From positions 6,507 through 70,506 of the forward strand of contig CAMTWK010000026.1 of NCBI GenBank assembly GCA_947085425.1: a DNA stretch of 64,000 nt. Reading direction: 5' to 3'. The translations under genes and the position numbers were made by a program. This document shows, piece after piece, positions 17,666-40,118 of the stretch; position 1 is the stretch's first letter; every line of letters begins with the position of its first letter. The DNA is from an uncultured Burkholderiales bacterium. GTDB lineage: Bacteria > Pseudomonadota > Gammaproteobacteria > Burkholderiales > Usitatibacteraceae. The notes below the pieces were generated by a model that worked only from the letters and a program-made list of their open reading frames with translations, had not been told where the DNA came from and made no database searches.

Positions 17666-17679
17666 TTGCTACGTTTTTT

Positions 17680-18288: not shown

Positions 18289-20321
18289 TCGGCCACCTGC
18301 CGCGCAAAATCGTCGCGTCTGTTGCCACTGCGGCCATTTGCTGGCGGTGTATTTGCGCCTGCCGGGGCACGAATTGGAATGCGATAACGTTTATCCCCAA
18401 TCGCAAAAATCCCTCCCAACGCCATCAAAATGCAGCCCGCCCATATCCAGTCAATAAATGGTTTGATGTAAATCCGCACACCCCAGGCACCGTCCGTGGC
18501 GTTCTCCACCGGCTCGCCCAGCGCCACATACAGATCACGCGTGAAACCGGAATCGATGGCGGCTTCGGTCATGGTTTGTCCGGAGGCAAAATAGGTGCGT
18601 TTTTCGGGCGATAGCCGCGTCACCACCTTGCCATTCTGGCTGACCTCAAAACGGCCTTTGACGGAGGAATAATTCGGCCCCGGCACATCACCGACGGACA
18701 CAAATTTGAACGTGTACCCCCCCTCGGTGACACTGCCGCCCGGTGCCATACGCACATCGCGCTCGGTCTCGTAGCCTCTGACCAGCGTGATGCCAATCAC
18801 CAACACCGCCATACCGACATGTGCGATGTGCATGGCGTAATAACTTGAACTATTACTGCGTAATTTTTGCCACAACCCGTCTCCCGCGGTCGCGCGGAGA
18901 CGATGCACAATGGCGGCAACCGAGGCGGCAATAATCCAGAACGCCAACAACAATCCCAGCGCCACCAGCAACGACCATTTGCCCATCACGAACGGAACAA
19001 CAATTGCACTCGCCACCGCCACGGCAAACGCCCACTTCAATCGCGTCCACAAATCCGGCAACGTCGCCCGTCGCCATGCCACCACCGGCCCGACCGCCAT
19101 CAAAAATAATGCCGGTGCCATCAACGGATAAAACACCGTATCAAAATACGGCGGACCGACGGAAATCTTGCCGAGTTTCAGGGCGTCAAGAAACAAGGGG
19201 TAGAGTGTGCCGAGCATCACCGCCAGCATCGCCACCACCAGCAAAACATTATTGGCGAGCAAAAACGATTCACGCGATATGCCGGCAAAGCCGCCGGGAA
19301 TCCTGGCCAGCCCCAGTTGCGGCGCGCGCCAGGCGTACAACGCCAGTGACGCGCCAATCACCACCACCAGAAAGGCGAGAATAAACGCACCGCGCGCCGG
19401 GTCGGTGGCAAAGGCATGCACACTGGTCAGTACGCCAGAGCGCACCAGAAACGTGCCCAACAGTGACATCGAAAACGCCATGATCGCCAGCAACACCGTC
19501 CAGCTTTTGAAGATGCCGCGTTTTTCGGTCACCGCCAGCGAGTGGATCAACGCCGTGCCGATTAACCACGGCATGAACGAGGCGTTTTCGACCGGATCCC
19601 AAAACCACCAGCCACCCCAGCCCAATTCGTAATAAGCCCAGGCACTGCCGAGGGCAATGCCGAGCGTCAGAAAAATCCACGCGGCGGTGGTCCACGGCCG
19701 CGACCAGCGCGCCCACGTCGCGTCAAGCTTGCCGCCGATCAGCGCCGCCACCGCAAACGCAAACGCCACCGAAAAACCGACATAACCCATATACAGCATC
19801 GGCGGATGGTAGATCATACCCATGTCCTGCAACAGGGGATTGAGGTCGCGCCCTTCGATTGCCGCCGGCCACACACGATCAAACGGGTTTGAGGTCATCA
19901 GCGTGAAAAGGAAAAACCCGATGGCAATCAGCCCCATCACCGCCAACACGCGCGCGATCACTTCCTGCGGCAAATTGCGGCTGAACACAGACACGGCATA
20001 AGTCCAGCCCGTGTGCATCACCAACCACAACAACAACGAGCCTTCATGGGAGCCCCACGACGCCGTGATCTTGTAATACACCGGCAGCTTGGTGTTGGAA
20101 TTCGCGACCACGTTTTTGACCGAAAAATCACTGGTGATAAAACTGTAGATCAGACAGGCAAAGGCGATCACCACAAACACAAATTGGCCGGCTGCCAAGG
20201 GTCGCGCCATCGCCATCCATTGACCGTTGTTGCGGAATGCACCAACCATCGGCACGGTGCCGAGCACAATGGCCAGACACAGGGCGATGATCAAAGAAAA
20301 GTGACCGAGTTCAGGAATCAT
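18285..20321 (-). CDS. ccmF: Cytochrome c haem lyase subunit CcmF
   Basis: 678-aa polytopic protein starting MIPELGHFSLIIALCLA, with the WWFWDPVENASFMPWL tryptophan-rich motif. Confidence 0.95.
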   Translation of the reverse strand: MIPELGHFSLIIALCLAIVLGTVPMVGAFRNNGQWMAMARPLAAGQFVFVVIAFACLIYSFITSDFSVKNVVANSNTKLPVYYKITASWGSHEGSLLLWLVMHTGWTYAVSVFSRNLPQEVIARVLAVMGLIAIGFFLFTLMTSNPFDRVWPAAIEGRDLNPLLQDMGMIYHPPMLYMGYVGFSVAFAFAVAALIGGKLDATWARWSRPWTTAAWIFLTLGIALGSAWAYYELGWGGWWFWDPVENASFMPWLIGTALIHSLAVTEKRGIFKSWTVLLAIMAFSMSLLGTFLVRSGVLTSVHAFATDPARGAFILAFLVVVIGASLALYAWRAPQLGLARIPGGFAGISRESFLLANNVLLVVAMLAVMLGTLYPLFLDALKLGKISVGPPYFDTVFYPLMAPALFLMAVGPVVAWRRATLPDLWTRLKWAFAVAVASAIVVPFVMGKWSLLVALGLLLAFWIIAASVAAIVHRLRATAGDGLWQKLRSNSSSYYAMHIAHVGMAVLVIGITLVRGYETERDVRMAPGGSVTEGGYTFKFVSVGDVPGPNYSSVKGRFEVSQNGKVVTRLSPEKRTYFASGQTMTEAAIDSGFTRDLYVALGEPVENATDGAWGVRIYIKPFIDWIWAGCILMALGGIFAIGDKRYRIPIRAPAGANTPPANGRSGNRRDDFARQVAE

Positions 20322-20350
20322 TTATATGTCCAAAAAAAACTGCAAAAACG

Positions 20351-20842
20351 TTATTGGCCCGGCGCCTGCGTGACCACCGACTTTTGTCCGGCAAAAATAT
20401 TGCCGTCGATCGGCTTGCCCGCTTGTTTCAGGGCTTCGGCGGCTTCCGGTGGCATGTAATTTTCGTCATGTTTTGCCAGTACTTCCGAGGCGCGAAAAAT
20501 GCCATCACCACCGATACGCCCCTGCGCCACCACACCCTTGCCCTCTTTGAACAGATCGGGCAGGATGCCGGTGTAGGTCACCGGAATTGTTTTGGCGGTG
20601 TCGGTAATACTAAAGCCCACGGTCAGCCCGTCGATTTGGCGTTTAACACTACCCGCCGTCACCAACCCACCAATTCGAAAGGTGCGCTCTTTTGGTGCCT
20701 GGTCATCAGCGACCTGCGTGGGCGTGAAGAAAAACACCCGGTTCTCGCGCAACGCGCCCACCACCAGTGTGGCGGCAATACCCAATATGGAAAGTCCGAT
20801 CAACACCCATAACACGCGTCTTTGCCTTGGTCTTAGTATCAT
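20351..20842 (-). CDS. ccmE: Haem chaperone CcmE
   Basis: 163 aa with an N-terminal anchor and an OB fold; [12 protein letters not shown] contains the haem-binding His. Confidence 0.9.
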
Positions 20843-21015
20843 GATTGTTCCGATATTTTTTGCACAATGATTTGCTCGCGAATTTCCGCCTGTGCACGAT
20901 GAATCCGCAACCGCACCAAAATAATTTCAAGAGTCACCGCGGCCAGGAATGCGCCAAACGAGCCCCAAACAAACAAACCGCGGCCACCCATCGAAAAAAA
21001 GTCCGCCCAATTCAT
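20839..21015 (-). CDS. ccmD: Haem exporter protein CcmD
   Basis: Lies in ORF 20839..21045(-). [34 protein letters not shown] begins at ATG 21015 and overlaps the ccmC stop (ATGA at 21015..21012). Confidence 0.85.
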
Positions 21016-21746
21016 ACGTTTGCCTCCTTGATTGTCCGCACCCACGCGTTGTTTTTTTCCCGCTCAAGGATGATGGCGCGCACCCGGCACAAGGCAATCG
21101 CAATCGCGTACATCCAACACGCCAATGCCATGATCAACATGGCCAACAGCATGGTCGCCGCCATTTTATTGCCCTGGCTGATCGATACCGAGGCCCCCTG
21201 ATGCAGGGTATTCCACCACTTCACCGAAAAATAAATGATCGGCACATTCACCGAACCGACCAGCACCAACAATGCACCGGCCTTGTCGGCGCGCTTTTTG
21301 TCTTCAATCGCATTGACCAAGGCAAGATAACCGACATACAAAAACAACAGGATCAGGGTTGAGGTCATGCGTGCATCCCACGCCCAATAAGTACCCCAGG
21401 TCGGCCTGCCCCACAACGCTCCGGTCCATAATGCCAGCGCCGTAAATATGGCGCCAGTAGGCGCCAGTGCTTCGATCATCATTGACGATAAGCGCGTTTG
21501 ATAGACCAGCGACAACACCGCATAACCGGCCATCACCAGATAAATGAACATCGCCATCCATGCAGTCGGCACATGGATAAAAATAATCCGATACACCTCT
21601 CCCTGCTGAAAATCTTCAGGGGCGACAAACAAACCCAAATAAAGTCCGGCCACACACAACAAACTTGCCAACGCGCCAAACCACGGCACCATTTTACCGG
21701 CCAGGGGATAAAACGACGAAGGAGCGGAATATTTAAACAGGCTCAT
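21012..21746 (-). CDS. ccmC: Haem exporter protein CcmC
   Basis: 244 aa with six TM helices and the WGTYWAWDARMTS tryptophan-rich motif. Confidence 0.95.
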   Translation of the reverse strand: MSLFKYSAPSSFYPLAGKMVPWFGALASLLCVAGLYLGLFVAPEDFQQGEVYRIIFIHVPTAWMAMFIYLVMAGYAVLSLVYQTRLSSMMIEALAPTGAIFTALALWTGALWGRPTWGTYWAWDARMTSTLILLFLYVGYLALVNAIEDKKRADKAGALLVLVGSVNVPIIYFSVKWWNTLHQGASVSISQGNKMAATMLLAMLIMALACWMYAIAIALCRVRAIILEREKNNAWVRTIKEANV

Positions 21747-21758
21747 GTTAATCCAGTC

Positions 21759-22466
21759 TTAATCCAAAGAAATTTTCACCGCTGCCGCAACCGCAAATGG
21801 CACTGCAACCATCCCCGACAGCGCCAGCGCCGCCAATAACGATAAATTTGCCGCCGCATCCAGACCGGTCATGGTGGACTCCACCGCACCCGCACCAAAA
21901 ATCAGCACCGGAATGTAAAGCGGCAAAACCAACAAGGCCATCAAAATTGAGCTCCCGCGCACCCCGAGCGTGAGTGCCGCGCCGATCGCGCCCAACATCG
22001 TCAAAACCGGGGTACCCAGTAATAGACCGGCAAACACCACCAACAGTTCCTTCGCATCCAGACCAAATTGCAAACCCATCAACGGCGACACCAACGCCAC
22101 CGGCAAGCCGGTGGTGAGCCAATGCGCAACCATTTTACCGCCACACAGCAATGGCAGTGGATAACGCGATAACACCAATTGTTCCAACGTGCCATCCAGA
22201 TAATCCTGCTGAAACAAGCGCGGCAGCGTCAGCAGCACGGCGAGCAAGGCGCACACCCACACCACACCGGGGGCAATTCGTTTCAGCAGCACGGTTTCCG
22301 GGCCGATTGCCAGTGGAAACAAACTCACCACGATGACAAAAAATACCAGCGCCTGCACCAGCTCGCCACGTGAACGCATGGCGAGTTTGATGTCGCGGGC
22401 GGCTGCGACCAGCAGTCCGCGCTCCGGAGTTTGCAATTCAAATTCAGCTGGCGTCTGGACTTTCAT
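21759..22466 (-). CDS. ccmB: Haem exporter permease CcmB
   Basis: 235-aa polytopic protein located between ccmA and ccmC; it contains LVFFVIVVSLFPLAIGPE. Confidence 0.9.
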   Translation of the reverse strand: MKVQTPAEFELQTPERGLLVAAARDIKLAMRSRGELVQALVFFVIVVSLFPLAIGPETVLLKRIAPGVVWVCALLAVLLTLPRLFQQDYLDGTLEQLVLSRYPLPLLCGGKMVAHWLTTGLPVALVSPLMGLQFGLDAKELLVVFAGLLLGTPVLTMLGAIGAALTLGVRGSSILMALLVLPLYIPVLIFGAGAVESTMTGLDAAANLSLLAALALSGMVAVPFAVAAAVKISLD

Positions 22467-23098
22467 CGCGTTATCTCCTGCATCACCAGTTCTTTGACCC
22501 GGCCTTGCAACGGCAGGGCCAAATGTGTGGCGATGACAGCGATACCGCCGCGCGTCAAATGGGCATCGACCGTTTGCAGCAGCAAAGCCACGCCGGCATC
22601 ATCAAGCGCGTTGGTCGGCTCATCGAGTAGCCACACCCTGCGGTCACTAAGTAACAGTCTGGCCATGCCGATGCGGCGCTTTTGCCCCTGTGACAATTTA
22701 CGGCCGATCACCTGTCTGCGGCCCAGCAAGCCGACCTGATTTAACGTTTCCAGCCGTACCGCAAGTGTGGTGTTGATGGTATCCAGCGCCAATTGATCGG
22801 CCAGATTTTCCTCGGCGCTGAGTTCGTCCTTTAACGCATTGGCATGGCCGACGTACAACACCGCCGCACGATGCAGCGGCGACAACATGGCCAATTTTTG
22901 GTCGTTGAGATAAACCTCCCCCCCGTCCGACGCGGCCAATCCGGCCAACAGCCGCAACAAACTGGTTTTACCCACGCCATTGGGACCGCGCAGAATCAAC
23001 GCCTCGCCGGGCAGCACCTCAAACGACAAGTCGGCAAATAAAAAACGTTCGCCGCGCTTAAGCGTGAGCGCAGCCGCGCGCAGCCGGGCGGCTGTCAC
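22463..23098 (-). CDS. ccmA: Cytochrome c biogenesis ABC ATPase CcmA
   Basis: 211 aa with Walker A GPNGVGKTS, signature LSQGQKRR and Walker B VWLLDEP. The GTG start overlaps the ccmI TAG by 1 nt. Confidence 0.9.
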   Translation of the reverse strand: MTAARLRAAALTLKRGERFLFADLSFEVLPGEALILRGPNGVGKTSLLRLLAGLAASDGGEVYLNDQKLAMLSPLHRAAVLYVGHANALKDELSAEENLADQLALDTINTTLAVRLETLNQVGLLGRRQVIGRKLSQGQKRRIGMARLLLSDRRVWLLDEPTNALDDAGVALLLQTVDAHLTRGGIAVIATHLALPLQGRVKELVMQEITR

Positions 23099-24486
23099 TA
23101 TGGGACAACCTTGTTGATGGTGATGTTCACCTTTGACGCCGACGGTTTGACGGCGGTACTCACACCAACAAAATCACCGGGCTTTAAGACTGCATCACCG
23201 GCTTTGGAAATGCGCGCCTCAATGGTCACCGACTCAAACGACGACAAACTCATACCCGATGTCATGGCCATGGCATCGGTTAATGAATAGGCATGCGGCC
23301 AAACCGCCGGTGCACCGATCCGTAACACCGCCAGCGGCATTTTCGGGCCATCGGTCGCGCGTGCCAATACAAACATGATGTCGCCTTTGGCCAGTTTCGC
23401 CTTGAGTTCCGGCGCGAGATCAATTTGCCCTGACACGGTTTTTCCGGCCGCAGCCGTCGCAGGACCTGGATCGGCAGGCGGTGCGGCGGCTGGCGCTGAT
23501 GGTGCGACAGGCGCGGGTGTGATGGCGGGCGCGGGGGCCTGCCGCGCGCTTTCCACCTGTGGCTGCTGCGGAAAAGCCGGTTGACCGGTTTTGATTTCGT
23601 TGATGATGGCAGTGACTTGTACAAAATCATCCGAATCCCTGGGCACCAACGATTTTAGTTTTTCCCAACTTTTGAGTGCCGCCGTTTTATTGCCGGCGCG
23701 CATGTCGGCGGTGCCGGCCAGGGCCAGCGCCTTCATATTGTTGCCGTCAATTTTTAATGCCTGCAAAATAAGTTGGCGTGGTTTGCCCTCAAATACGCCG
23801 TCTTGCAGCATCACCTCGGTATCGGCGTAATCAGCAAGCAACTGCGCATCATTGGGTGCAAGCGCGACCGCACGGGCAAAGGCTTTGGCCGCCAGGGCAT
23901 ATTGCCCGAGCGCGTTTTGCGAACGCGCCAACAGCACCCAACCCTTTGGATCGTTCGGGTTTTCTTCCATTTTCCGCGCCAAGTTTTCCACCAGCGCCAA
24001 CACTTGTTTATCCGACATGGCGGCATCGGCCGGAGTGGACGGCTCCGTCGCCGATGGTGACGTGGCCAGCATGGTGCCGGCGTGGCTCCCTTGGGCACCC
24101 TGGTAGCCTCCCCAATACATATAACCAAGGGTGGCACCCACCACGACAAACAACGACACAACAATTGCCAGCGTCCACGCCGGTTTCGCGGCATTATTTA
24201 CTGAAGGTGCAGGCCCATCCTGATCTTTCACTTCCAAGCTCACCTCGCCGACCATACGCGTGGCCAGCTCATCGAGGGCGCGATCACGCGCGGATTCGTC
24301 AATCAATCCGCGTTGAAACTCCGTTTCAATCTCCTGACTTTGCAAACGAAACGCGGCCAGATTGGCCGACTCGGTGGAAATGTCGCCCGCCACCACGTCT
24401 TGATCGGTAAAACGATGGCGCAATATCGGAAACAACACAAAAACCAGCGCCAGCAACAGCATGATGGAAGCAATCACATAAAACAT
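23098..24486 (-). CDS. ccmI: c-type cytochrome biogenesis protein CcmI (CycH-like, TPR)
   Basis: Lies in ORF 23098..24531(-), with ATG 24486 (MFYVIASIMLLLALVFVLFPIL). Two TM helices are followed by TPR repeats (GWVLLARSQNALGQYALAAKAFARAVALAPNDAQLL) and a Pro/Ala linker. It is unusually placed first in the operon. Confidence 0.8.
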   Translation of the reverse strand: MFYVIASIMLLLALVFVLFPILRHRFTDQDVVAGDISTESANLAAFRLQSQEIETEFQRGLIDESARDRALDELATRMVGEVSLEVKDQDGPAPSVNNAAKPAWTLAIVVSLFVVVGATLGYMYWGGYQGAQGSHAGTMLATSPSATEPSTPADAAMSDKQVLALVENLARKMEENPNDPKGWVLLARSQNALGQYALAAKAFARAVALAPNDAQLLADYADTEVMLQDGVFEGKPRQLILQALKIDGNNMKALALAGTADMRAGNKTAALKSWEKLKSLVPRDSDDFVQVTAIINEIKTGQPAFPQQPQVESARQAPAPAITPAPVAPSAPAAAPPADPGPATAAAGKTVSGQIDLAPELKAKLAKGDIMFVLARATDGPKMPLAVLRIGAPAVWPHAYSLTDAMAMTSGMSLSSFESVTIEARISKAGDAVLKPGDFVGVSTAVKPSASKVNITINKVVP

Positions 24487-24838
24487 AAGTTCAGGCCGAG
24501 AAAGAAATAGACTGACATTATAGCCAGCCACACTCTGTCAGGTTGAAATTTGCTGTCGGTCACCACATCGGCTTTTGTAACCGCCATGATTTGGCTGGTC
24601 GAAATTGCAAAATAATGACGCTTAACTTCAAATACCGCCATTTTTGGATAAACTAATCACGGCGCATGATTTACAAATTATAAAATTACGCCTCTGCTTC
24701 TTCGTATACAGATCCGGCCATTCAACTTTTTAAAAATCGTTCGTGCCGCTTGGAGCATCCGATCGGCTCTGCCAAGGATAGGCAATACAGTCAGCGTATG
24801 GTTTGTATGGTTTGCGCAGGTTGTGCCAAAAAAAACAA

Positions 24839-25678
24839 ATGCCCCATCAGACAGTTCTGGAATACCGGCACTACCGTTATTTAAAAATTGCGCTGCTGGT
24901 CATCGTCACCTCGATCGCCGCGTACGTGTTTCAAGACGCGCCGGTTGGTCGATACGGCGGTACGCCGGTGGGATATGCGTTGGGCATCGCCGCTGCCGCC
25001 GTCGTTTTTTGGCTGATGTGGTTCGGCGTGCGCAAACGTCAATACACCGGGTCCAAAACAACTTTACAAGGCTGGTTATCCGCCCACGTTTATTTGGGTG
25101 CGGCGCTGATTATTATCACCACCTTGCACGCTGCGTTTCAGGTGGGTTGGAATATTCATACGCTGGCGTATTTGTTGTTATTGATCGTTATCGCTTCCGG
25201 TTTTTTTGGCGTCTATGCCTACCTGCGATTTCCAACCATGCAGACCAATAACCTCGGTGATGAAACCCTCAACGCGGTGTTATTACGCATAGGTGACCTC
25301 GACAAAGAAGCGCAGCGGCTGGTCATGACCCTGCCCGACAAATTTAATCAAGCCGTACAGCAAAGTGTGCAGTACACACTTATCGGTGGCAGCGTACGCA
25401 ACCAATTACGACTCAAACATCCCGATTGCCCGACCAACAAAGCCATCCCCATTCTGGAAGACCAAACCAACAAAGCGGAATTGAACATCGAGCAGGCGCA
25501 GACCTTGCACGCGCTTTATAGCGTGATGTTACGCAAACAAAAAGCGGTCGTGCGCGCCCGCCGCGACATTCGCTTCCGGGCGATGATGCAAGTCTGGCTG
25601 TACGTGCATGTGCCGCTGTCATTTTGTTTATTGGCGGCGTTGATTGCGCACATCATCTCTGTGTTTTTTTACTGGTAA
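24839..25678 (+). CDS. Five-TM membrane protein with two H-x13-H pairs (putative di-haem b-type transmembrane electron carrier)
   Basis: Lies in ORF 24803..25678, with ATG 24839 (MPHQTVLEY). TM3 is SAHVYLGAALIIITTLHA (His83/His97) and TM5 is YVHVPLSFCLLAALIAHI (His257/His271). Each pair is spaced by exactly 13 residues, as in ferric-reductase/YedZ-type bis-haem helices. Confidence 0.6.
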   Translation: MPHQTVLEYRHYRYLKIALLVIVTSIAAYVFQDAPVGRYGGTPVGYALGIAAAAVVFWLMWFGVRKRQYTGSKTTLQGWLSAHVYLGAALIIITTLHAAFQVGWNIHTLAYLLLLIVIASGFFGVYAYLRFPTMQTNNLGDETLNAVLLRIGDLDKEAQRLVMTLPDKFNQAVQQSVQYTLIGGSVRNQLRLKHPDCPTNKAIPILEDQTNKAELNIEQAQTLHALYSVMLRKQKAVVRARRDIRFRAMMQVWLYVHVPLSFCLLAALIAHIISVFFYW

Positions 25679-25690: not shown

Positions 25691-27487
25691 GTGAAGCTAC
25701 TTCTCGCCCGTCTCAACCGCAATAAACAAGGACAGGTCGCCCGCACCGATGAAATTCTTGAGTCCGAGTCAATTCCGATCGGGCGCGGCAGTGACTGCAA
25801 ATTACATTTACCCGACCCGCGCGTGGCCTTACATCACGCCGTCATTCAGAAAGGCGCGGCCGACAGAATCAGCATTGACGCCACCCAGGGAGTGATTGCA
25901 ATTGATGGCCGGTCCGAGCGTGCATCGTTGCTCAAAACCGATCTGCTGATCAAACTTGGCCCCTACACTATCATCGTGTTGCCGACGCCGGACGATGTGG
26001 ATGTCGCCATATCGTTGGAATTGACCGAACCTTTGGCCGATCGCACCGAAGCAACCATACAAGCGCAAAAAATCGCCTCTGCCGGACTCGGCTCAACCTG
26101 GCTCTCCAAACGCCGGATGTCCTGGCTGCTTGCGGGCGTGGTTGCCCTGATTTTTATAATCTGGCCGATCTGGCATGTCGTGAATACCGACACCCATATA
26201 GTCGGCGAAAAAAAGCTCGCCAAGATCACCGCAGATGCGTCTTGGGATCCCGGTCCGCTTGATAGTGGTCATACCAGTTTTGGCCGCGATTGCATTCGCT
26301 GCCACCAAACGCCGTTTGTACAGGTCAAAAACGAAACCTGCGAATCCTGCCATAAATCCATCGGCTGGCATTTCGCATTGGAAACGGCGGCGGCCAAACA
26401 ACTGCACACCAACGTGTTTAGTACCGATGGCAGCGAGGGAAGATGTGCAGCTTGTCACCGTGACCACAAAGGCAAAAATGCACTGAAGCGACAAGATTCG
26501 CCCTTGTGCACAGATTGCCACCGCGATCTTAAAACCCGCCATAACGAGGTGGCCTCACCCAATATTGGCGACTTTAAGAAGGATCATCCGGCGTTTAAAT
26601 TGTCGATGCTGGTTGCAGGCAAAACCGGCAAAGACGCGGTCATACGGGTATCACAGAGCGACAAAAACAAACTGGTCGAAAAATCGAATTTGAAATTTCC
26701 GCACGATGTGCATCTGTCCGAAAATAATCGGGACGGTGTGCGCAGCCCGGGTGGCAAACGCGCCATGGAATGCAAAAATTGTCACGTGCCGGATGAAACC
26801 GGCACACGTTTTAAGCCGGTGACGATGAAAGAACATTGTCAGGATTGTCACTCACTTGAATTCGAACCAACGGCAACCAGCCGACAGGTGCCGCACGGCA
26901 AAGTTGATGATGTGATCGCGACCATCAATGAGTTTTATGCGCAAGCGGCCTTCATGGGCAAAACGATTGACCAGCCACCGTCAAAAATTTGGCGGCCGGG
27001 TGATGAGCCACGTACCGGTCCGGATAAAAATATCGCCTGGGTCAATCAAAAAGCCAAGGCCATCACCACCGAGATGATGGAAAAACGGGTTTGTTTTGCC
27101 TGCCATGAAATCACCCGTGTTGGTGTCGGTGCGGCACAATCATGGCATATCGCACCCATTGCCGTGACCAGACACTGGTTGCCGAAGTCCCGTTTCCCAC
27201 ATAGTCAGCACGCGACCTTTAGTTGCAAGAAGTGCCACGACGTTGAAAAGTCGCAAACCAGTGCGGATATTGCCATTCCGGATTTGGCCTCCTGCCAATC
27301 GTGTCACTCCGGCAATGTGCCCGAACAAGATAAAGCTCCCGGCAGCTGTGAAAGTTGTCACGGCTTTCACACCGGCGGCACCCGCGCCGGGGTACCGGTG
27401 GTACTACCCAAATTAAAAGATGTCGCCATTACCACCCGTTCCGGAGTGTTTAAACATCCAACCAGCACCCGTCCAGCGGCCAAATGA
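25691..27487 (+). CDS. FHA-like domain / single TM / periplasmic decahaem c-type cytochrome fusion
   Basis: 598 aa with a GTG start. Residues ~25-100 are FHA-like (IPIGRGSDCKLHLPDPRVALHHAVIQ...IDGRSE...IKLGPYTIIV). KRRM precedes the TM WLLAGVVALIFIIWPIWHVV. There are ten CxxCH: CIRCH, CESCH, CAACH, CTDCH, CKNCH, CQDCH, CFACH, CKKCH, CQSCH, CESCH. Confidence 0.85.
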   Translation: MKLLLARLNRNKQGQVARTDEILESESIPIGRGSDCKLHLPDPRVALHHAVIQKGAADRISIDATQGVIAIDGRSERASLLKTDLLIKLGPYTIIVLPTPDDVDVAISLELTEPLADRTEATIQAQKIASAGLGSTWLSKRRMSWLLAGVVALIFIIWPIWHVVNTDTHIVGEKKLAKITADASWDPGPLDSGHTSFGRDCIRCHQTPFVQVKNETCESCHKSIGWHFALETAAAKQLHTNVFSTDGSEGRCAACHRDHKGKNALKRQDSPLCTDCHRDLKTRHNEVASPNIGDFKKDHPAFKLSMLVAGKTGKDAVIRVSQSDKNKLVEKSNLKFPHDVHLSENNRDGVRSPGGKRAMECKNCHVPDETGTRFKPVTMKEHCQDCHSLEFEPTATSRQVPHGKVDDVIATINEFYAQAAFMGKTIDQPPSKIWRPGDEPRTGPDKNIAWVNQKAKAITTEMMEKRVCFACHEITRVGVGAAQSWHIAPIAVTRHWLPKSRFPHSQHATFSCKKCHDVEKSQTSADIAIPDLASCQSCHSGNVPEQDKAPGSCESCHGFHTGGTRAGVPVVLPKLKDVAITTRSGVFKHPTSTRPAAK

Positions 27488-29397
27488 TGCGCGCTCAAAT
27501 ATTTTCAACCAGTCTCGTCTGCAGTCTGCTATTGATTGCCTGCTCGGGCGGCGGTGGTAATGAGACAACTGTTTGTCAAACAAATTGCACACCACCGGCG
27601 GCACCAGCAGTCGATGCACTGTCCGTGGCCGATGTTGAGCGGGTGATTGCGCAGGCCGCGTCCGAAGCAAACGCACGCAGTCAGCGCGCCACCATTGCCG
27701 TGGTGGATCGGGTTGGTAACGTATTGGCCGTGTACCGCATGAATGGTGCCGCCACCACCTTTCGCATCAGTAGTGGCCGCGGCGTGAATGGCGGCTTGGA
27801 AAACATCGACATTCTGCCGGATGGCCTTGCGGCCATCAGCAAGGCCATTACCGGCGCCTATTTATCCTCCAACGGCAATGCATTTTCATCGCGCACCGCC
27901 AGCCAGATTGTGCAGGAGCACTTTAATCCGCGTGAACTTAATCAACCGAGTGGCCCGTTATACGGTGTGCAGTTTTCGCAATTGCCGTGCTCGGATTTAA
28001 TGCGCCGCGCCAGCGACGGCAGCGTTGGCCCGAAGCGTTCACCATTGGGTCTGTCCGCCGATCCGGGTGGCTTGCCACTCTACAAAAACAATCGGCTGGT
28101 GGGCGGTGTGGGCGTGATTGCCGATGGTGTTTATGGCCTCGATCTCGACGCCACCGACATTGATCAAAGCATCGACGAATTGATCGCGGTGGCCGGTACC
28201 AGCGGATTCGCCGCACCGGATGATATTCGTGGCAATCGCATTACCGCCGATGGTCGCACCTTTCGTTTTGTAGACTCTGAATCGCTGCAGTCCAACCCGG
28301 CACAAGCGCCTGCCCTGGCGGCAATCAGCGGCGCACTTATTTCAGTCGGTGGCTATTTTGACGGCGCGATACGTTTCGGCACCTCGTTTGGCAACGCCGC
28401 ATCGGGCTATCGCGCTGCCACCTCCACTGATCCCAGCCAGTTGGTGGCGCAAAGTGCATTTGTATTGGTGGACGCGGCCAACAACAATCGTTTTGCAGCC
28501 CGCGCCGGTACCGATGGTCTGATCACACTGGCCGAAGCCACCACCATTGCCAGCGAAGCCATCAAAGTCGCCAATCGCACCCGCGCACAAATTCGCCGAC
28601 CACTGAATACCCAAGCACAAGTGACCGTGTCGGTGGTCGATACCAACGGCAACATTCTGGTCATCGCCCGCACACCGGACGCCCCGATCTTTGGCACCGA
28701 TGTGAGTTTGCAAAAAGCCCGCACCGTCATGTTGTTTTCGCATCCAAATGCCGCCAGCGATCTTTCAGCCCTGCCCAACATCACCTACCTGGGTGCCGGC
28801 GGTAACCCGGTCGGTGGTGCGCGTACGTTTGCGCAAACCATTACCGCTACACGATCATTTTTTAACGACCCTGCCATGCTGTCGAACGGGATCGCGTTTT
28901 CCAATCGCGCCATCGGCAGCATCGCCCGCCCCTATTTTCCGGATGGCATTATCGGCACCAGTGCCGGCCCCTTGTCATCATCCATCACCAGTTGGAGCCC
29001 GTTTAATGTCGGCTTACAACTCGACCTGAGTTATAACGCCATCATTGCAGCCGCGTCCAGCCCAACCGGTGACTCAGTTACCGGTGGCTGCACCGGGTTA
29101 TCCAAGGCAAGAAATGGTATCCAGATTTTTGCCGGGGCGGTGCCGATTTATCGGGGCAACCAATTGGTTGGTGCCATAGGTGTTTCCGGTGATGGGGTCG
29201 ATCAGGACGACTTGATTTCCTTTTATGGCCTGCATAACGCGGGCGTGGTTCTCAACACCAACATCGGCAATGCGCCCAAACCAATACGTGCCGATAATTT
29301 AGTCCCGCAGGGACTCGGCACCCGTTTACGTTACGTGCAATGCCCGGTCGCGCCGTTTATCAACGGCAGCGAACAAAACGTTTGTGAGGGTTTGTGA
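27484..29397 (+). CDS. Lipoprotein with two GlcG/DUF336-like (haem-binding/'haem-degrading' fold) domains
   Basis: 637 aa with a lipobox LLLIAC followed by SGGGG. Domain 1 is ATIAVVDRVGNVLAVYRMNGA...GGLPLYKNNRLVGGVGV. Domain 2 is VTVSVVDTNGNILVIARTPDAPIFGTDVSLQKA...GAVPIYRGNQLVGAIGVSGDGVDQDD. The ATG overlaps the upstream stop (ATGA). Confidence 0.7.
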   Translation: MMRAQIFSTSLVCSLLLIACSGGGGNETTVCQTNCTPPAAPAVDALSVADVERVIAQAASEANARSQRATIAVVDRVGNVLAVYRMNGAATTFRISSGRGVNGGLENIDILPDGLAAISKAITGAYLSSNGNAFSSRTASQIVQEHFNPRELNQPSGPLYGVQFSQLPCSDLMRRASDGSVGPKRSPLGLSADPGGLPLYKNNRLVGGVGVIADGVYGLDLDATDIDQSIDELIAVAGTSGFAAPDDIRGNRITADGRTFRFVDSESLQSNPAQAPALAAISGALISVGGYFDGAIRFGTSFGNAASGYRAATSTDPSQLVAQSAFVLVDAANNNRFAARAGTDGLITLAEATTIASEAIKVANRTRAQIRRPLNTQAQVTVSVVDTNGNILVIARTPDAPIFGTDVSLQKARTVMLFSHPNAASDLSALPNITYLGAGGNPVGGARTFAQTITATRSFFNDPAMLSNGIAFSNRAIGSIARPYFPDGIIGTSAGPLSSSITSWSPFNVGLQLDLSYNAIIAAASSPTGDSVTGGCTGLSKARNGIQIFAGAVPIYRGNQLVGAIGVSGDGVDQDDLISFYGLHNAGVVLNTNIGNAPKPIRADNLVPQGLGTRLRYVQCPVAPFINGSEQNVCEGL

Positions 29398-31265
29398 TGC
29401 GGCCGGCTTGGACATTGCCGAATAAGCCGTGCCAGGTGGTGTCCCTACACGCGCTGTTGCTGGTTTGTGCCGGCACTTGTGTCATGGATGTCGCGGCGTT
29501 TTCGCCACCAGCGTTAACGGCGCCACAGCAATTAGCCCCCACACCAGTGGACGAGGCCGAACCAATTGTGCGTTCGCGTGCACCGTCGGACACACGCACA
29601 CCCATGAAATATCCATTACCGCCCATCGACCCGACAAAAGTCGATGCGCCGACTCCTATGGATATTCGTCAATCCATCTCAGTGCCGGACCGCTGGCGCA
29701 TTATGGATTCGCTTGGGTTCAAATTTCCATGGTACGACCCGTATAACCACAACGTCTGGAAGGGTGACAAACCATTTCCACCGTTTGCCAAATTGCACGG
29801 TGGCAACAACAACGACTGGTTCTTGGCGCTGTCGGTGATTTCCGATTCGCTGATCGAGACGCGTCGGCTGCCGCTGCCGGTTGGCGCACAGTCGTCGTTG
29901 CGACCGGACGCGAACAATGTGTTTGGCCGTGGCAAACAAACGGTTTTTGTCGAGACCGTCATCCTGTCAGCGGCAGTGATCAAGGGAAACACCACCTTTC
30001 GCCCGCCCGACTACGAATTCCGTTTTGTGCCGGCCTTTCAAATCAACCATGCCCGCATCGGGGAGGTGCGCGGGTTAAAAATCGATCCGCGCCTTGGGAA
30101 GAGTCGCACCGACCGCCATTTTGCAGTGCAGGAATTATTCGGCGATGTGCATTTGCGCAACGTCTCCGACCATTACGATTTTGACTCGCTGCGGGTGGGC
30201 ATTCAGCCGTTCATTTCCGATTTCCGTGGTTTTGTTTTCCAAGATGTGCCGTTCGGCGTGCGCCTGTTTGGCAATCGCGACAACAATTTTTGGCAGTACA
30301 ACGTTGGTTATTTCCGGCGCATGGAAAAAGACACCAATAGCGGCCTCAATGACTTCAGCCAAAAAATGCGCCGCGATCATTTGTTTGTCGCCAATGCCTA
30401 TCACCAGGATTTTCCGGTCATCGGCCATACCACGCAGGCAACCATCATTCACAACGTCAACCGTGAATCAGCGGCGGATTATTACGATCGCAACGGCTTT
30501 TTGATCCGTCCGGCGGTGATTGGTGACGCACGACCGCGCAACTACAACGTGACTTATGTGGGGTTGAGCGGCGACGGGCACATCGATCGATGGAATCTGA
30601 CCACCTCGGTGTACGGCGCGTTCGGCACCGATCAGCGCCATCCGCTGGCGCAGAAAAAGCAAACCATTCGCGCCGGTTTCGCCGCCGCCGAACTTTCCCG
30701 CGACTTCAGCTGGCTGCGGGTGCGCGGCAATGCGCTGATTGCCAGCGGCGACAAAAATCCGTTTGACGGCAAGGCGACCGGCTTTGATGCCATTTTCGAA
30801 AACCCGCAGTTTGCCGGTGCCGACACCAGTTTTTTTATTCGCCAGGCGATTCCCCTACTCGGCGGCGGTGGCGTGGCCTTATCACAACGTAACGGTGTGT
30901 TGCCGTCGCTGCGCTCCTCCAAGGATCAAGGCCAATCGAATTTTGTCAATCCCGGCCTAACTTTGATTGGTATGGGCGCGGACGCGGACCTCACACCACG
31001 TATTCGACTGATTGCCAATATTTCCAAGCTCAATTTTATAAACACCTCGTCACTTTCGGTGTTGCGCAATCAACACGTCACGTCAAAAAATCTCGGAGTT
31101 GATATTTCGGCAGGTGTGCAAATCCGACCGGTCATGAGCCAGAACATCGTGCTCAACATTTCCGGCGCGGCGCTGCTTCCCGGCCGCGGACTCAAACAGT
31201 TGTACGATGAAGACAAACGTGGGCCGCAATATTCCGTGTTATTTAACTTGATCCTGACCTATTGA
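29394..31265 (+). CDS. Putative outer-membrane beta-barrel protein (no haem motifs)
   Basis: 623 aa with a signal-like N-terminus. Alternating hydrophobic patterns are frequent, and the C-terminus YSVLFNLILTY ends in an aromatic residue, as in OMP beta-signals. The start overlaps the upstream stop (GTGA; ATG 29397 is the alternative). Confidence 0.5.
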   Translation: MMRPAWTLPNKPCQVVSLHALLLVCAGTCVMDVAAFSPPALTAPQQLAPTPVDEAEPIVRSRAPSDTRTPMKYPLPPIDPTKVDAPTPMDIRQSISVPDRWRIMDSLGFKFPWYDPYNHNVWKGDKPFPPFAKLHGGNNNDWFLALSVISDSLIETRRLPLPVGAQSSLRPDANNVFGRGKQTVFVETVILSAAVIKGNTTFRPPDYEFRFVPAFQINHARIGEVRGLKIDPRLGKSRTDRHFAVQELFGDVHLRNVSDHYDFDSLRVGIQPFISDFRGFVFQDVPFGVRLFGNRDNNFWQYNVGYFRRMEKDTNSGLNDFSQKMRRDHLFVANAYHQDFPVIGHTTQATIIHNVNRESAADYYDRNGFLIRPAVIGDARPRNYNVTYVGLSGDGHIDRWNLTTSVYGAFGTDQRHPLAQKKQTIRAGFAAAELSRDFSWLRVRGNALIASGDKNPFDGKATGFDAIFENPQFAGADTSFFIRQAIPLLGGGGVALSQRNGVLPSLRSSKDQGQSNFVNPGLTLIGMGADADLTPRIRLIANISKLNFINTSSLSVLRNQHVTSKNLGVDISAGVQIRPVMSQNIVLNISGAALLPGRGLKQLYDEDKRGPQYSVLFNLILTY

Positions 31266-31266: not shown

Positions 31267-34200
31267 ATGAAACAAAACTCGTTTATGGGTAAGCCTTTTC
31301 AAGCAAAAATGTTCGTGAACGCGCTGCTGTGCTTGAGTTTGCTCGGCGCCGCTGTTGACACCACTGCCAGTGGCGGCGAAAAGCCGGTGGCGCGCAGCTA
31401 CGCGGTGACGCCGGCTGCGCCGGCGCGGCAATCGGTCATGGACGAATCACAAAAGTCATTTGGCTGTGTGTCGTGTCATACCACCACCGATCGCCATACC
31501 ATGCACGCCAATCCCGGTGTGGTGATTGGTTGCACCGATTGTCACGGCGGTGACGCCAAAGTGGTCAAGCCTGCCAATGTGGTTCGCACCGGTCAAGGGG
31601 AAAAACAATACGCAGAGTTGATGGCCAAGGCGCATATCCTGCCGCGTTTTCCCGCTGCCTGGAATACCCCGTCCAGCTCCAACCCGGAGTCAACCTACAC
31701 ACTGCTCAATCGTGAAGCGCGTGAGTTTGTGCGATTTATCAACCCCGGTGATTTACGTGTCGCCCGTGAAGCCTGCGGCGCCTGCCATCTGGAAATTATT
31801 CAGGCGGTCGAACGCAGCCTCATGTCAACTTCGGCGATGTTATGGGGCGGCGCATCGTATAACAACGGCATTCTTCCCTATAAGCGTTACATCCTCGGCG
31901 AAGCCTATACCGCCAATGGTGTGGGTGCGTTACTAAAGAATCCGGTGCCGGTCACCCCGCACATGACCGCGATGGGCATTCTGCCGTCACTCGCACCCTT
32001 ACCCGCCTGGGAAACGATTCCACCGGGTGATGTGTTCCGGGTGTTCGAGCGTGGCGGCCGGGTGATCAACACACAATTCCCCGAAGTCGGATTACCCAAC
32101 GTCAGCGGCGCGTTGCAAAAGCTGGATGAACCCGGCCGGCCGGACATCAAACAATCCAATCGTGGCCCCGCCACCGGTCAGCGAATCGCCGTACCGGTCA
32201 TCAACATCACCAAAACACGCCTCAACGATCCCCACCTGTGGTTCTTGGGCACCAACGAACAACCGGGTGACTATCGCTCCTCGGGTTGCACCGCCTGCCA
32301 TACCATTTACGCCAACGACCGCGACCCCAAACACAGTGGTCCGTATGCAAAGTTTGGCAACGAAGGCAAGAGTCAGAGCAAAGACCCCACCATCGACAAA
32401 ACCAAATCCGGCAGTCCGCTCAAACACGAGTTCACCCGCGCCATTCCCTCGTCGCAGTGTATGGTTTGCCATATGCACCAGCCCAACATATTCGTGAATT
32501 CGTTTTATGGCACCACCATGTGGGACTACGAAGCCGATGCGCCACAAATGTGGCCGAAAAAACAAAAGTACCCGACCGCCAAAGAATCGTTTGAGATTTT
32601 AAAACGCAATCCTGAGGAAGCGGCCACTCGCGGCCTGTGGGGCGACCGCGATTTCCTCAAACGCATCTGGGAAAACAACGACAAAAAGAAAGACACCCAG
32701 TTCGCCGATTACCACGGACACGGCTGGAACTTTCGGTATGTGTTCAAGCGTGATCGCAAAGGCACACTGCTCGATAAAAACAATGCGCCGGTGGCCGATA
32801 CCGATCCAAAAAAATTCGACAAGGCGGTACACCTGACCTCGATTCACCTCGACGTTGGCATGCATTGTGTGGATTGCCACTTCTCGCAGGACGTGCACGG
32901 CAACGGCCATATTTATGGCGAGGTGGCGGCGGCGATCGAAATTGATTGTATCGACTGCCACGGCACCGCCGACAAATTGCCAACACTGTTTACCTCCGGC
33001 CCGGCGGCCTCGCCGCAAGGTCGCGATTTACAACTGATGCGCACGCCGGATGGCCGCAAACGATTTGAGTGGATCAACGGTGACCTGTTTCAACGTTCGA
33101 GCCTCGATCCGAAACTCGAATGGAAAATGACCCTGGTAAAAAATAGTGTGACGCCTGGCAATGCCAAGTACAACGAAAAGGCGGCGCGCGCAAAATTAAT
33201 GCACAGCGGTGCATCGGGACGCGATGGGAATTGGGGGCCGGGTAGTACACCAACCCAATCGGCAGCAAACGATTACGCCCACAGCAACGAAAAAATGACT
33301 TGTTACACCTGCCATCTTTCCTGGACCACCTCGTGTGCGGGTTGCCATTTGCCGATTCAGGCCAATGCCAAAACCGATAAACAACATTACGAAGGGGGCG
33401 AATCACGCAACTACGCCACCTACAACCCGCAAGTGGCACGCGACGATATGTTTCAGCTGGGTCGCCACGGCCCGGTCAAAGGCAGCCGTATTGCACCGGT
33501 GCGCTCCAGCTCGGCGTTGGTCCTGTCGTCGATGAATGCCAATCGTGAGCGTATTTATATCCAACAGCCGCCGATTGCCGCAAGTGGCTTTTCCTCACAG
33601 GCGTTCGCACCACACTACCCACACACCGAACGCAAAACCGAAACCAAAACTTGTAGCGACTGCCACGCCGCACGCGACGGCGACAACAACGCCATCATGT
33701 CGCAGCTGTTGTTACACGGTACCAACTACGTAAACTTTGTCGGCTTTAATGCATGGGTGGGCTCCGGCAAACACGTTGAAGCCGTACAAGTCACCGAATG
33801 GGACGAACCGCAGGCGGTGATTGGTAGTTATTTACACAAATACGCCTATCCGGATTGGTTTCAGAATCATCAAAAAGCCGGAAAAAAACTGCAACTGCAT
33901 CATTCACAAAGCACCGGTGGTCAGGCCGGCTGTGTGCAATTGCGCGGCGAATATTTGTTCGTCGCGGAAGGTGCGGGGGGCTTTCGGGTCTATGACGTCG
34001 CCTCGATTGCCAACAAGGGCATCTCGCAACGCATTATCTCGGCGCCGTTTTCACCGTTGGGACAAAACACCAACGTACCATCCAAAAATGCCACTTGTAT
34101 GGCTCTACCCACCAATCAAGCCATTGCACCGGAGCGCAACCAAGGCGACTTGATGCGCACCACCAATCAAGAGCAGGCGTTTCATCCGATTTACCACTAC

Positions 34201-35109
34201 GCATTTGTGGTCGATGCGGAAGAGGGCTTGATTGTGGTGAACGTGGATACGCTGGCGGATGGTGAGCCGCGCAATAATTTCCTGAAACGCGCCGCAACCT
34301 GGAACGAAGGCAATGTGCTCAAAGGTGCACGCCACATCGTATTGGGTGGGTATTACGCCTACGTGGCAACCGACAGTGGTCTGGTGGTATTAAATTTGAA
34401 CGATCCGCTTAAACCGAAGGTGGCGGCGAGTCTGCCTCTCGACAATATTCGAGCCTCTGCGTTGCAATTTCGTTATCTGTTTGTGACCACCGCCAAAGGC
34501 TTGGAAATCATCGACATCACCGACCCGAACAAACCCGCCGTCAAGGCCGGTGTACCGCTCGCTGATGCACGCCGCGTCTATGTGGCACGCACCTATGCCT
34601 ATGTGGCGGCCGGGCGTGATGGCTTGGTGATTATCGATGTCGAAAAACCAGAACAGCCGCGCCTATACACAAGCTTTACCTCTGGTGACGGCATCAATGA
34701 CAGTCACGACGTGATTGTTGGCTCGACCAACGCTTCGTTGTTTGCTTATATCGCCGACGGCAAGAATGGCCTGAAGGTGCTGCAACTCACTTCACCGGAT
34801 TCACAACCCAAGTTTTACGGTTTCTCACCCGAACCCAAGCCCGAGCTGATTGCCTGGCGTAAAACCGATTCACCGGCGCTGACCCTGGCAAAAGGGCTGG
34901 ATCGGGATCGGGGTGTCGATGAAACCGGTGGACAGATTGCCGTATTTGGACGAATTGGTTCACGGCCGTTTAATCGCGGCGAAATGGATAAGTTTTACCT
35001 GACACCGGAAGGTAAATTGTGGACCGTGACCGACGCCATCGAGACTGGAAAATTTGTACCGCTATCCGCGATAGTGGCCGCACCAACGGCGAGCGGAGGA
35101 GCACGGTAA
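31267..35109 (+). CDS. Secreted 1280-aa decahaem c-type cytochrome with a C-terminal LVIVD-repeat beta-propeller region
   Basis: The signal peptide is MFVNALLCLSLLGAAVDTTA. There are ten CxxCH: CVSCH, CTDCH, CGACH, CTACH, CMVCH, CVDCH, CIDCH, CYTCH, CAGCH, CSDCH. The C-terminal ~400 aa carry repeated GLxVxxxxDPxxP units: GLIVVNVDTLADGEP, GLVVLNLNDPLKP, GLEIIDITDPNKP, GLVIIDVEKPEQP, GLKVLQLTSPDSQP. Confidence 0.85.
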   Translation: MKQNSFMGKPFQAKMFVNALLCLSLLGAAVDTTASGGEKPVARSYAVTPAAPARQSVMDESQKSFGCVSCHTTTDRHTMHANPGVVIGCTDCHGGDAKVVKPANVVRTGQGEKQYAELMAKAHILPRFPAAWNTPSSSNPESTYTLLNREAREFVRFINPGDLRVAREACGACHLEIIQAVERSLMSTSAMLWGGASYNNGILPYKRYILGEAYTANGVGALLKNPVPVTPHMTAMGILPSLAPLPAWETIPPGDVFRVFERGGRVINTQFPEVGLPNVSGALQKLDEPGRPDIKQSNRGPATGQRIAVPVINITKTRLNDPHLWFLGTNEQPGDYRSSGCTACHTIYANDRDPKHSGPYAKFGNEGKSQSKDPTIDKTKSGSPLKHEFTRAIPSSQCMVCHMHQPNIFVNSFYGTTMWDYEADAPQMWPKKQKYPTAKESFEILKRNPEEAATRGLWGDRDFLKRIWENNDKKKDTQFADYHGHGWNFRYVFKRDRKGTLLDKNNAPVADTDPKKFDKAVHLTSIHLDVGMHCVDCHFSQDVHGNGHIYGEVAAAIEIDCIDCHGTADKLPTLFTSGPAASPQGRDLQLMRTPDGRKRFEWINGDLFQRSSLDPKLEWKMTLVKNSVTPGNAKYNEKAARAKLMHSGASGRDGNWGPGSTPTQSAANDYAHSNEKMTCYTCHLSWTTSCAGCHLPIQANAKTDKQHYEGGESRNYATYNPQVARDDMFQLGRHGPVKGSRIAPVRSSSALVLSSMNANRERIYIQQPPIAASGFSSQAFAPHYPHTERKTETKTCSDCHAARDGDNNAIMSQLLLHGTNYVNFVGFNAWVGSGKHVEAVQVTEWDEPQAVIGSYLHKYAYPDWFQNHQKAGKKLQLHHSQSTGGQAGCVQLRGEYLFVAEGAGGFRVYDVASIANKGISQRIISAPFSPLGQNTNVPSKNATCMALPTNQAIAPERNQGDLMRTTNQEQAFHPIYHYAFVVDAEEGLIVVNVDTLADGEPRNNFLKRAATWNEGNVLKGARHIVLGGYYAYVATDSGLVVLNLNDPLKPKVAASLPLDNIRASALQFRYLFVTTAKGLEIIDITDPNKPAVKAGVPLADARRVYVARTYAYVAAGRDGLVIIDVEKPEQPRLYTSFTSGDGINDSHDVIVGSTNASLFAYIADGKNGLKVLQLTSPDSQPKFYGFSPEPKPELIAWRKTDSPALTLAKGLDRDRGVDETGGQIAVFGRIGSRPFNRGEMDKFYLTPEGKLWTVTDAIETGKFVPLSAIVAAPTASGGAR

Positions 35110-38924: not shown

Positions 38925-39057
38925 GAGTCCGCGCGGACCCCTGGCTTGCGAGGCACTTCGCCTCTTTGGTTTTGGCGGAGGGCGTGGGTGCAGCGTTCCG
39001 CGTGGTTCGGCGTGGTGTAAGCAACACCCCGCAAAATGTCGGCAGCGGCGGCCTTGA

Positions 39058-40072: not shown

Positions 40073-40118
40073 ATCGCTATTTAGGTGCTGAAAGTAATTT
40101 TGTGTAGACTGATTTTTG

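Follow-up and report, generated by a model that had tools for sequence, protein, structure and literature searches.

A cytoplasmic FHA-fold head on a membrane-anchored decahaem cytochrome and its conserved operon in an uncultured Burkholderiales bacterium

The combination of an FHA domain with a multihaem cytochrome c has been noticed twice in the literature. A 2023 pangenome of the Gallionellaceae contains, as cluster 403, a "Forkhead-associated protein, 10 CXXCH", present in 27 of 87 iron oxidisers (PMC10734462). In Ferrigenium straubiae, the protein named NHC is a nonahaem cytochrome c that is associated with the membrane and carries an FHA domain in the cytosol; its gene neighbours encode a five-transmembrane-helix protein without family match and a [4Fe-4S] protein; the 2026 preprint that describes it states that the FHA and multihaem combination had not previously been reported (10.64898/2026.01.22.701106). 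Here, we analyse a protein of this architecture encoded by a 64,000-nucleotide stretch of DNA from an uncultured Burkholderiales bacterium of the Usitatibacteraceae (GenBank assembly GCA_947085425.1, contig CAMTWK010000026.1, positions 6,507 to 70,506 of the forward strand). This whole stretch is called the window, and all positions refer to it unless another locus is named. The protein is the product of B, the second gene of a seven-gene operon whose members are designated A to G. It almost certainly resides in the inner membrane, which it spans with a single helix, and has an FHA-fold head on the cytoplasmic side and ten c-type haems on the periplasmic side.

NHC and cluster 403 have in common with B the FHA head, the single transmembrane (TM) helix and nine or ten c haems. 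The NHC neighbours match A and G, as well as a stand-alone G-A-B arrangement found on one distant contig (P0139), and the NHC locus is very probably the same G-A-B module, as judged by architecture and neighbours. Both notices are bioinformatic only and show no function. They contain neither the two-haem b signature of A, nor the FAD/NAD(P)H and cyclic-nucleotide (cNMP)-binding domains of G, nor the C-D-E-F extension, nor the associations with kinase, PP2C, cyclase and PilZ that are reported below. Literature searches on FHA with multihaem proteins, on multihaem proteins of Usitatibacteraceae and on LVIVD with cytochromes brought up only these two sources as relevant. An earlier note on this DNA knew of no characterised example of such a fusion. 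This is still true, as nobody has characterised the architecture, but the architecture itself had already been noticed.

Several other electron-transfer systems resemble parts of the locus. In NOX and ferric-reductase (FRD) proteins, electrons pass from NAD(P)H to a flavin and then through the membrane over a stack of two bis-His b haems to an outside acceptor, the His pairs being about 13 residues apart on two helices. G and A are alike in His spacing and would be alike in route, except that G, the presumed dehydrogenase, is a protein of its own, extended by an iron-sulfur (FeS) wire and cNMP domains, and that the chain would continue into c-type cytochromes. The Tmc and Hmc complexes of sulfate reducers consist of an HdrD-like FeS protein in the cytoplasm, a cytochrome b in the membrane and a multihaem cytochrome in the periplasm, the same three-layer logic as that of G-A-B. 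They are devoid of an FHA head, their cytoplasmic subunit is not a flavoprotein with cNMP domains, and they have no detectable homology with B; the NCBIfam match to HmcA is negligible and falls on E, not on B. CymA, of the NapC/NirT type, shares with B a single N-terminal TM anchor followed by a periplasmic multihaem domain, but possesses four haems and no cytoplasmic domain, whereas B possesses ten haems and the FHA head. The NapC/NirT family is absent from the Pfam and NCBIfam matches of B even at E<=1, which leaves B outside that family. CbcL of Geobacter sulfurreducens, MtoC and MtrH join a HydC/FdnI-type two-haem b module to a nine- or ten-haem periplasmic c domain in the inner membrane, as part of extracellular electron-transfer pathways (PMC6295460). 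A and B together resemble CbcL in combining a likely PF01292-like b module, albeit with weak PF01292 matches of A, with a multihaem c domain. The b and c parts form a single polypeptide in CbcL and are encoded here by two genes 12 nucleotides apart, which sets A and B outside the CbcL/MtoC/MtrH group. Moreover, CbcL has neither an FHA head nor a dedicated cytoplasmic flavo-FeS partner, and it is thought to react with quinol, whereas a direct NAD(P)H route via G is proposed here. Two further candidates were rejected: the Uet (undecahaem) cluster of Tenderiales, which differs in gene content, and PCC3 of the Gallionellaceae, which differs in composition and combines a periplasmic cytochrome of 21-27 haems with an extracellular one, a porin and a protein of the inner membrane, the comparison with PCC3 being made by description only.

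Fold, ligand pocket and topology of B

The B open reading frame (ORF) and the segments of its product are as follows.

25691-27487, + strand: gene B, FHA-TM-decahaem cytochrome, 598 residues, GTG start; matches Pfam Cytochrome_C7 (54.5 bits) and c3 families
25691-26023, + strand: B residues 1-111, cytoplasmic degenerate FHA fold with invariant G31, R32, D42, R44, G90-P91 and E110; Ala46 in place of Ser and Gly67 in place of Asn
26024-26107, + strand: B residues 112-139, linker helix and conserved juxtamembrane motif T-W-L-S-K-R
26108-26185, + strand: B residues 140-165, single TM helix; Pro159 invariant in 148 of 148 superfamily representatives
26186-27484, + strand: B residues 166-598, periplasmic domain with ten CxxCH motifs within residues 201-557

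The ten CxxCH motifs announced for this ORF in the earlier note are all present, at residues 201, 217, 252, 273, 361, 383, 468, 512, 535 and 553, the first of them 36 residues past the TM helix. Pfam analysis reports Cytochrome_C7 far above its cut-off of 24.8 bits, and Cytochrom_c3_2 with 48.9 bits, which assigns B to the multihaem cytochromes c. A sequence search of the PDB with B returned zero matches, and the full-length model (mean predicted local distance difference test, pLDDT, 64.7) is confident in the head and TM helix only.

Since the head is what makes B unusual, the position of its start codon matters. The GTG lies 12 nucleotides past the stop codon of A and in the same frame, so that this upstream stop makes a longer form of B impossible. 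A shorter form, in which translation would begin 3' of the FHA-like region and the head would be an annotation artefact, could draw on the use of GTG instead of ATG. This explanation is effectively refuted, along with the doubt that the earlier note had raised on the same point. Conservation of the N-terminus extends to residue 1 in 185 distinct close relatives of B and in about 140 distant homologues, strand β1 (residues 2-10, pLDDT 97) belongs to the fold, the amino-acid sequence of the head is itself conserved (mean pairwise identity 48%, against 55% for the haem domain), and a Shine-Dalgarno-like motif, AAGGCGG, precedes the GTG. Conservation counts below refer to these 185 close relatives and to 148 representatives of the wider superfamily.

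The N-terminus displays an FHA-like string, IGRGSDCKLHLPDPRVALHHAVIQ ... IDG ... LGPY, and the FHA fold that the earlier note had proposed from it is borne out by the family signal and by modelling. On B itself, the profile signal is borderline: Pfam FHA (PF00498) scores 20.6 bits on the full-length protein and 22.7 bits on residues 1-140 alone, on either side of the cut-off of 20.7, the match covering residues 30-57 only. When 34 heads of the family are scanned singly, 31 match FHA (best E 9.4e-10) and 33 match Yop-YscD_cpl (PF16697), a model that B itself matches with 25.5 bits, below its cut-off of 33.2. A head-family profile searched against the PDB returns FHA domains only (GarA, OdhI, FhaA and EmbR, with E from 3e-4). 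The AlphaFold2 (AF2) model built on the 34-sequence alignment exhibits a β-sandwich of 11-12 strands over residues 2-111 (pLDDT ~97), a helix at residues 118-134 and the TM helix at residues 140-164. A Foldseek search of the PDB with the head model reports FHA domains for all of the top 48 matches, the best being OdhI (8p5x_G, E 5.9e-6, template-modelling score 0.72), with scores up to 0.76. Regarding Yop-YscD_cpl, type III secretion or other secretion genes are absent from the operon and from 90 related loci, which argues against assigning B to that family.

The pocket is a different matter. The Gly-Arg of the β3-β4 loop is almost universal: G31 and R32 are each found in 184 of the 185 close relatives, and in 147 and 139 of the 148 representatives, respectively. 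D42 (183), R44 (185), G90 (183), P91 (184) and E110 (184) are comparably constant among the close relatives, and the His of the S-R-x-H motif is retained as His49 (168 of 185; 114 of 148). In contrast, the canonical Ser of this motif, a phosphate ligand in the β4-β5 loop, is Ala46 in B, and the Arg that follows is Leu47. Position 46 is Ala in 130 and Ser in 27 (15%) of the close relatives, and Ser in 11 (7%) of the representatives. The canonical Asn of the N-G-T motif, in the β6-β7 loop, aligns with Gly67 (the alignment by hidden Markov model to GarA sets N-G-T opposite G67-V68-I69), and none of the residues common at positions 66-67 of the close relatives is Asn. The earlier note was therefore right that canonical residues are replaced, as Ser and Arg became Ala46 and Leu47, but it placed N-G-T five residues off: the IDG that it took for this site belongs to a later V-N-G/R motif.

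The conserved residues of the head map to the β3-4, β4-5 and β10-11 loops of the AF2 model, which form the peptide-binding face in FHA domains. With these loops conserved and Ser and Asn gone, selection has maintained the face of the head while its chemistry has changed. By its fold, the head is an FHA domain, and its phosphothreonine pocket is degenerate. Its best structural and profile matches are GarA/OdhI, FhaA and YscD/EssC. GarA and OdhI keep the Ser and the Asn and bind phosphothreonine, whereas the B head has lost both residues. YscD and EssC are membrane proteins with a cytoplasmic FHA-like domain of which the phospho-pocket is degenerate; they belong to secretion machines. None of these five proteins is known to be fused to a redox domain.

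Hydropathy analysis of B reports one TM segment, around residues 143-165, preceded by K140-R141-R142-M143. Lys and Arg amount to 3.69 per 15 residues before the helix and to 2.02 after it, and the bias is found in 83% of the 185 members. No signal peptide is present in B, as strand β1 already begins at residue 2. Ten c-haem sites require periplasmic maturation by the Ccm system, the genes of which adjoin the operon; this places the haems in the periplasm and the head in the cytoplasm. Together, these features strongly support an N-in, C-out orientation and agree with the topology drawn in the earlier note from the KRRM sequence. The final Arg of the juxtamembrane motif (26096-26113) is R141, found in 185 of the 185 close members and in 138 of the 148 representatives, and the Pro159 codon lies at 26165-26167. 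With this Pro and this Arg so conserved, the TM helix seems to serve for a specific interaction or as a relay, beyond mere anchoring.

Operon, partners and distribution of the family

The operon, its terminator-like hairpin and the divergent genes next to it are as follows, B excepted.

24803-25678, + strand: A, five-TM membrane protein, probable true start ATG 24839; cytoplasmic loop at residues 143-268
27484-29397, + strand: C, lipoprotein (LIAC lipobox) with HbpS-like/GlcG-type domains
29394-31265, + strand: D, 623 residues, no family match, ends in LFNLILTY; putative outer-membrane β-barrel
31267-35109, + strand: E, 1280 residues, secreted, ten CxxCH motifs and a C-terminal LVIVD β-propeller
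35019-36503, + strand: F, cytochrome c554-like, four CxxCH motifs and one CxxxxCH, probable true start ATG 35109
36516-38924, + strand: G, cytoplasmic, 802 residues; TrxR/FNR-like FAD/NAD(P)H domain, two cNMP-binding domains and a HycB-like poly-[4Fe-4S] domain
38950-38974, + strand: terminator-like hairpin and T-run closing the operon
16969-24531, - strand: divergent ccm cytochrome c maturation genes (CcmA, B, C, F, a G-like redoxin, H and I)

The genes are tightly packed in the window, with 4-nucleotide overlaps and gaps of 1-12 nucleotides, and, among the 80 close loci, all those of sufficient length keep the order A-B-C-D-E-F-G. Identities within the operon are lowest for B (36-57%) and highest for E (70-86%, across orders). 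The high conservation of E suggests that it is perhaps more than a passive wire, with a catalytic or substrate-binding role; it has no sequence relatives in the PDB. D is taken as a putative outer-membrane barrel on account of its C-terminal LFNLILTY. The adjoining ccm cluster is complete and syntenic in many relatives; in one distant locus (L084), the ccm genes come after E. With respect to start codons, homologues of A begin with M-[RQ]-H-[RQ]-T, in favour of ATG 24839 over TTG 24803, and homologues of F are 440-470 residues long, which fits ATG 35109, overlapping the E stop codon, over GTG 35019.

A is likely a two-haem b cytochrome with the haems stacked across the membrane, as it contains four invariant His residues in two pairs on TM3 and TM5. 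In 72 homologues, His95 and His109 (TM3), His119, and His269 and His283 (TM5) are invariant, the members of each pair being 13 residues apart, and the pairs are also invariant in distant A-like proteins. Pfam analysis reports cytochrome b561 (PF01292) below threshold for 14 of 15 members; a few match Ferric_reduct (PF01794; 3 of 15, weakly) or DUF4405, and a PDB search with an A profile returned no matches. In G, the two cNMP domains lie between the FAD/NAD(P)H part and a HycB-like ferredoxin part with four Cys clusters. The FAD and NAD(P) motifs are present, and the phosphate-binding cassettes of the cNMP domains are intact (GEMGLISGRRRTA at residue 426 and GEMALMSDAPRSA at residue 551). This combination of domains is unusual in its own right.

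B is one member of a large, conserved family, noticed in the literature but never characterised. A scan of 185,579 species genomes found a relative in 157. The best 80 of these 157 loci were examined, all from metagenome-assembled genomes; they belong to Burkholderiales, Usitatibacteraceae, Casimicrobiaceae, Arenimonas/Lysobacteraceae, Moraxellaceae and Rhodospirillales, with one bin labelled Vicinamibacteria and one labelled Pedobacter. The closest relative among the matches listed is 92% identical. A first protein search yielded at least 265 full-length homologues, and the 120 homologues listed all share the B N-terminus and have ten CxxCH motifs, except for the truncated P0104 and P0119, in each of which six are found. 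When 1.84 billion cluster representatives were searched with a profile, 1256 matched at E<=1e-30, and nearly all of the best 150 align from residue 1. Of the 147 representatives that were new, six have nine CxxCH motifs and the other 141 have ten. The full architecture is shared by at least 150 clusters at 50% identity, and the family spans Beta-, Gamma- and Alphaproteobacteria together with some bins outside. One member comes from a cultured isolate with a complete genome, the alphaproteobacterium Zavarzinia sp. CC-PAN008, in which RefSeq names it "FHA domain-containing protein"; its locus (L092; CP173678.1, 1161245-1183215) has the gene order F, on the minus strand, then G-A-B-C-D-E. Two variants depart from the common layout. 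In one (P0136; L090, 620-2704), a PilZ domain of the cyclic di-GMP-binding type (49 bits, E 6.6e-13) is fused ahead of the FHA head. The other (P0231; L091, 869-2401) has no FHA head and starts 7 nucleotides past an A-like gene, which implies that the head is dispensable for the wire itself.

The contexts of 11 distant B representatives were examined. An A-like gene stands immediately upstream of B wherever the position is readable, and G stands directly upstream of A in seven of these contexts (L081, L083, L085, L086, L089, L092 and the P0139 contig, the last having G-A-B alone with no C-D-E nearby). These neighbours are true homologues of the A (36-50% identity) and G (49-52%) of the window. 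With G directly upstream of A in distant loci, the ancestral order is, judging from gene order, G-A-B-C-D-E-F, and the window lineage would have relocated G to the end of the operon.

A proposed electron-entry module and its alternatives

The functional linkage of G, A and B is very likely. In the chain that we propose, electrons from NAD(P)H would enter G via its flavin and FeS clusters and pass to A, cross the membrane on two b haems, one near each membrane face, and be handed to the ten-c-haem chain of B. From B, they would go on to F and E, and then out via the putative outer-membrane pair D and C. The whole would form a split and extended version of the ferric-reductase/NOX or CbcL/Tmc-type transmembrane conduit.

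Within this unit, we tentatively read the head as a docking or gating module, an assignment that we hold to be a real possibility, short of probable. Its partner would be cytoplasmic, with the large loop that A has on that side and/or the FeS end of G as the likeliest candidates, and the binding would assemble or throttle electron entry; in some lineages, the head might offer a handle for kinase, phosphatase, cyclase or cyclic di-GMP inputs. In the window lineage, the head is probably phospho-independent, since the fold and the ligand-face loops (G31-R32-G33, D42, R44, H49 and G90-P91) are kept while the Ser and Asn that hold phosphothreonine are lost. The earlier note had offered docking onto the flavo-FeS protein G as one of two options, and the direct adjacency of G, A and B in distant relatives lends it circumstantial support. 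Co-variation adds a weak hint that the partner may be the A loop. In a mirror-tree analysis (partial Mantel test, 27 taxa, controlled by the C/D/E distances), the distances of the head track those of the A cytoplasmic loop with r 0.60, those of the A TM part with 0.46, and those of G, represented by its N-terminal 240 residues with the FeS end left out, with 0.30; all the comparisons come out as "significant", which indicates that the control for phylogeny is imperfect. An accessory regulatory role agrees better than one in core electron transfer with the variant that lacks a head, with the PilZ fusion and with the neighbouring signalling genes described below, and the operon appears to be under second-messenger control, possibly also under phospho-signalling control.

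Several points weigh against this model. The mirror-tree signal is weak and its taxa are not independent, the match of A to cytochrome b561 stays below the Pfam threshold, and in the window lineage G lies five genes away from B. PF01292 also holds quinone-reactive subunits (FdnI/HydC), so that A and B could instead form a quinol:cytochrome c unit, with another role for G. The outward direction of the electrons is inferred from energetics only. As to the head, the invariant R32 and R44 lie on the ligand face and could bind phosphate there, and the kinase and PP2C genes of two distant operons argue for phospho-control somewhere in the family.

These last points lead to the second option of the earlier note, regulation by Ser/Thr phosphorylation. 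If the head were a classical phospho-reader, its ligand would be a phosphothreonine of G, A or a signalling protein, and a Ser/Thr kinase and a PP2C phosphatase would switch the conduit. The fold is kept with its invariant Gly-Arg, and the invariant Arg44, two residues ahead of the canonical Ser position, occupies what we take to be the place of Arg83 in Rad53 FHA1. Some distant operons do contain suitable genes: a Ser/Thr kinase (Pkinase) gene directly follows B in L083 (11902-13722), a PP2C gene and a gene for a double-FHA protein stand directly before G within the L081 operon (4651-6565), and a guanylate-cyclase/FHA protein is encoded after F, at the operon end, in L085 (16729-17080). However, the pocket residues are Ala and Gly where Ser and Asn are needed, Ser being missing in more than 85% of the members, and Ala stands at the Ser position even in the kinase- or PP2C-linked members P0199 and P0217. 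Furthermore, tblastn of the 64-kb window and, within 10 kb, of the 80 close loci detected neither kinase nor PP2C homologues, Pfam scans of 39 window ORFs found no such domain, and the separate canonical FHA protein beside the PP2C in L081 could be the real reader. Phosphorylation thus draws circumstantial support from two distant operons, and we regard a phospho-reading head as unlikely.

Somewhat less likely again is a purely structural or assembly domain, a cytoplasmic plug that would fix the N-in orientation of the signal-anchor or drive oligomerisation, as in YscD/EscD or EssC, and would have no part in electron entry. The family heads match the YscD cytoplasmic model as strongly as FHA, the phospho-pocket is degenerate, and the head-less variant exists, all of which would suit such a plug; yet conservation is concentrated in the ligand-face loops and not in the core, and the head repeatedly recruits or adjoins signalling domains (PilZ, kinase, PP2C and cyclases). 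In addition, a plain N-terminal TM anchor suffices for CymA-type cytochromes (PMC6295460). The signalling genes, among them a CHASE2 guanylate cyclase gene between G and A in L087 (6720-8945), would also suit a transmembrane redox sensor, in which the redox state of the periplasmic haems would be relayed through the TM helix and its Pro159 to the head, and from there to cytoplasmic kinases, cyclases or the cNMP domains of G. The invariance of Pro159 and of the juxtamembrane motif and the presence of two cNMP-binding domains on G agree with this idea. On the other hand, ten haems far exceed the needs of a sensor, B always lies between the membrane b-type protein and downstream periplasmic or outer-membrane components, and the operon of the window lineage contains no signalling gene, all of which makes a sensor improbable.

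If the docking or gating reading of the head is retained, G-A-B may be placed among the known inner-membrane entry modules. CymA, CbcL and ImcH are all three thought to operate through quinones. G-A-B would be a fourth family beside them, so far unrecognised, which would serve extracellular or periplasmic electron transfer, fed by cytoplasmic NAD(P)H and bypassing the quinone pool: a gated "electron valve" that integrates the FHA head, the cNMP domains of G and, depending on the lineage, PilZ, kinase/PP2C or cyclase inputs. We consider this extension doubtful. If true, second messengers and possibly phosphorylation would regulate an electron outlet at the protein level, and the valve would open or close a drain on the reducing power of the cell. 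It would also provide a name and a testable mechanism for a gene set that metagenomes of soil, groundwater and glacier streams commonly contain. The model is directly testable, as the cultured carrier Zavarzinia sp. CC-PAN008 exists with a complete genome.

Elsewhere in the window

Just past the operon, positions 40000-44000 form a low-GC island (39-41%, against ~53%) near a tRNA-Met gene (46190-46266, - strand). It contains the following features.

40284-41291: C-5 cytosine DNA methylase
41206-41991: overlapping ORF of unknown type
42595-43176, - strand: phage-integrase-family fragment

A small mobile or restriction-modification element has probably integrated here. On the other side of the operon, 10578-13643 (- strand) encodes a 1021-residue hybrid sensor kinase with VUPS (vitamin-uptake-like sensor), PAS, GAF, HisKA/HATPase and receiver domains.

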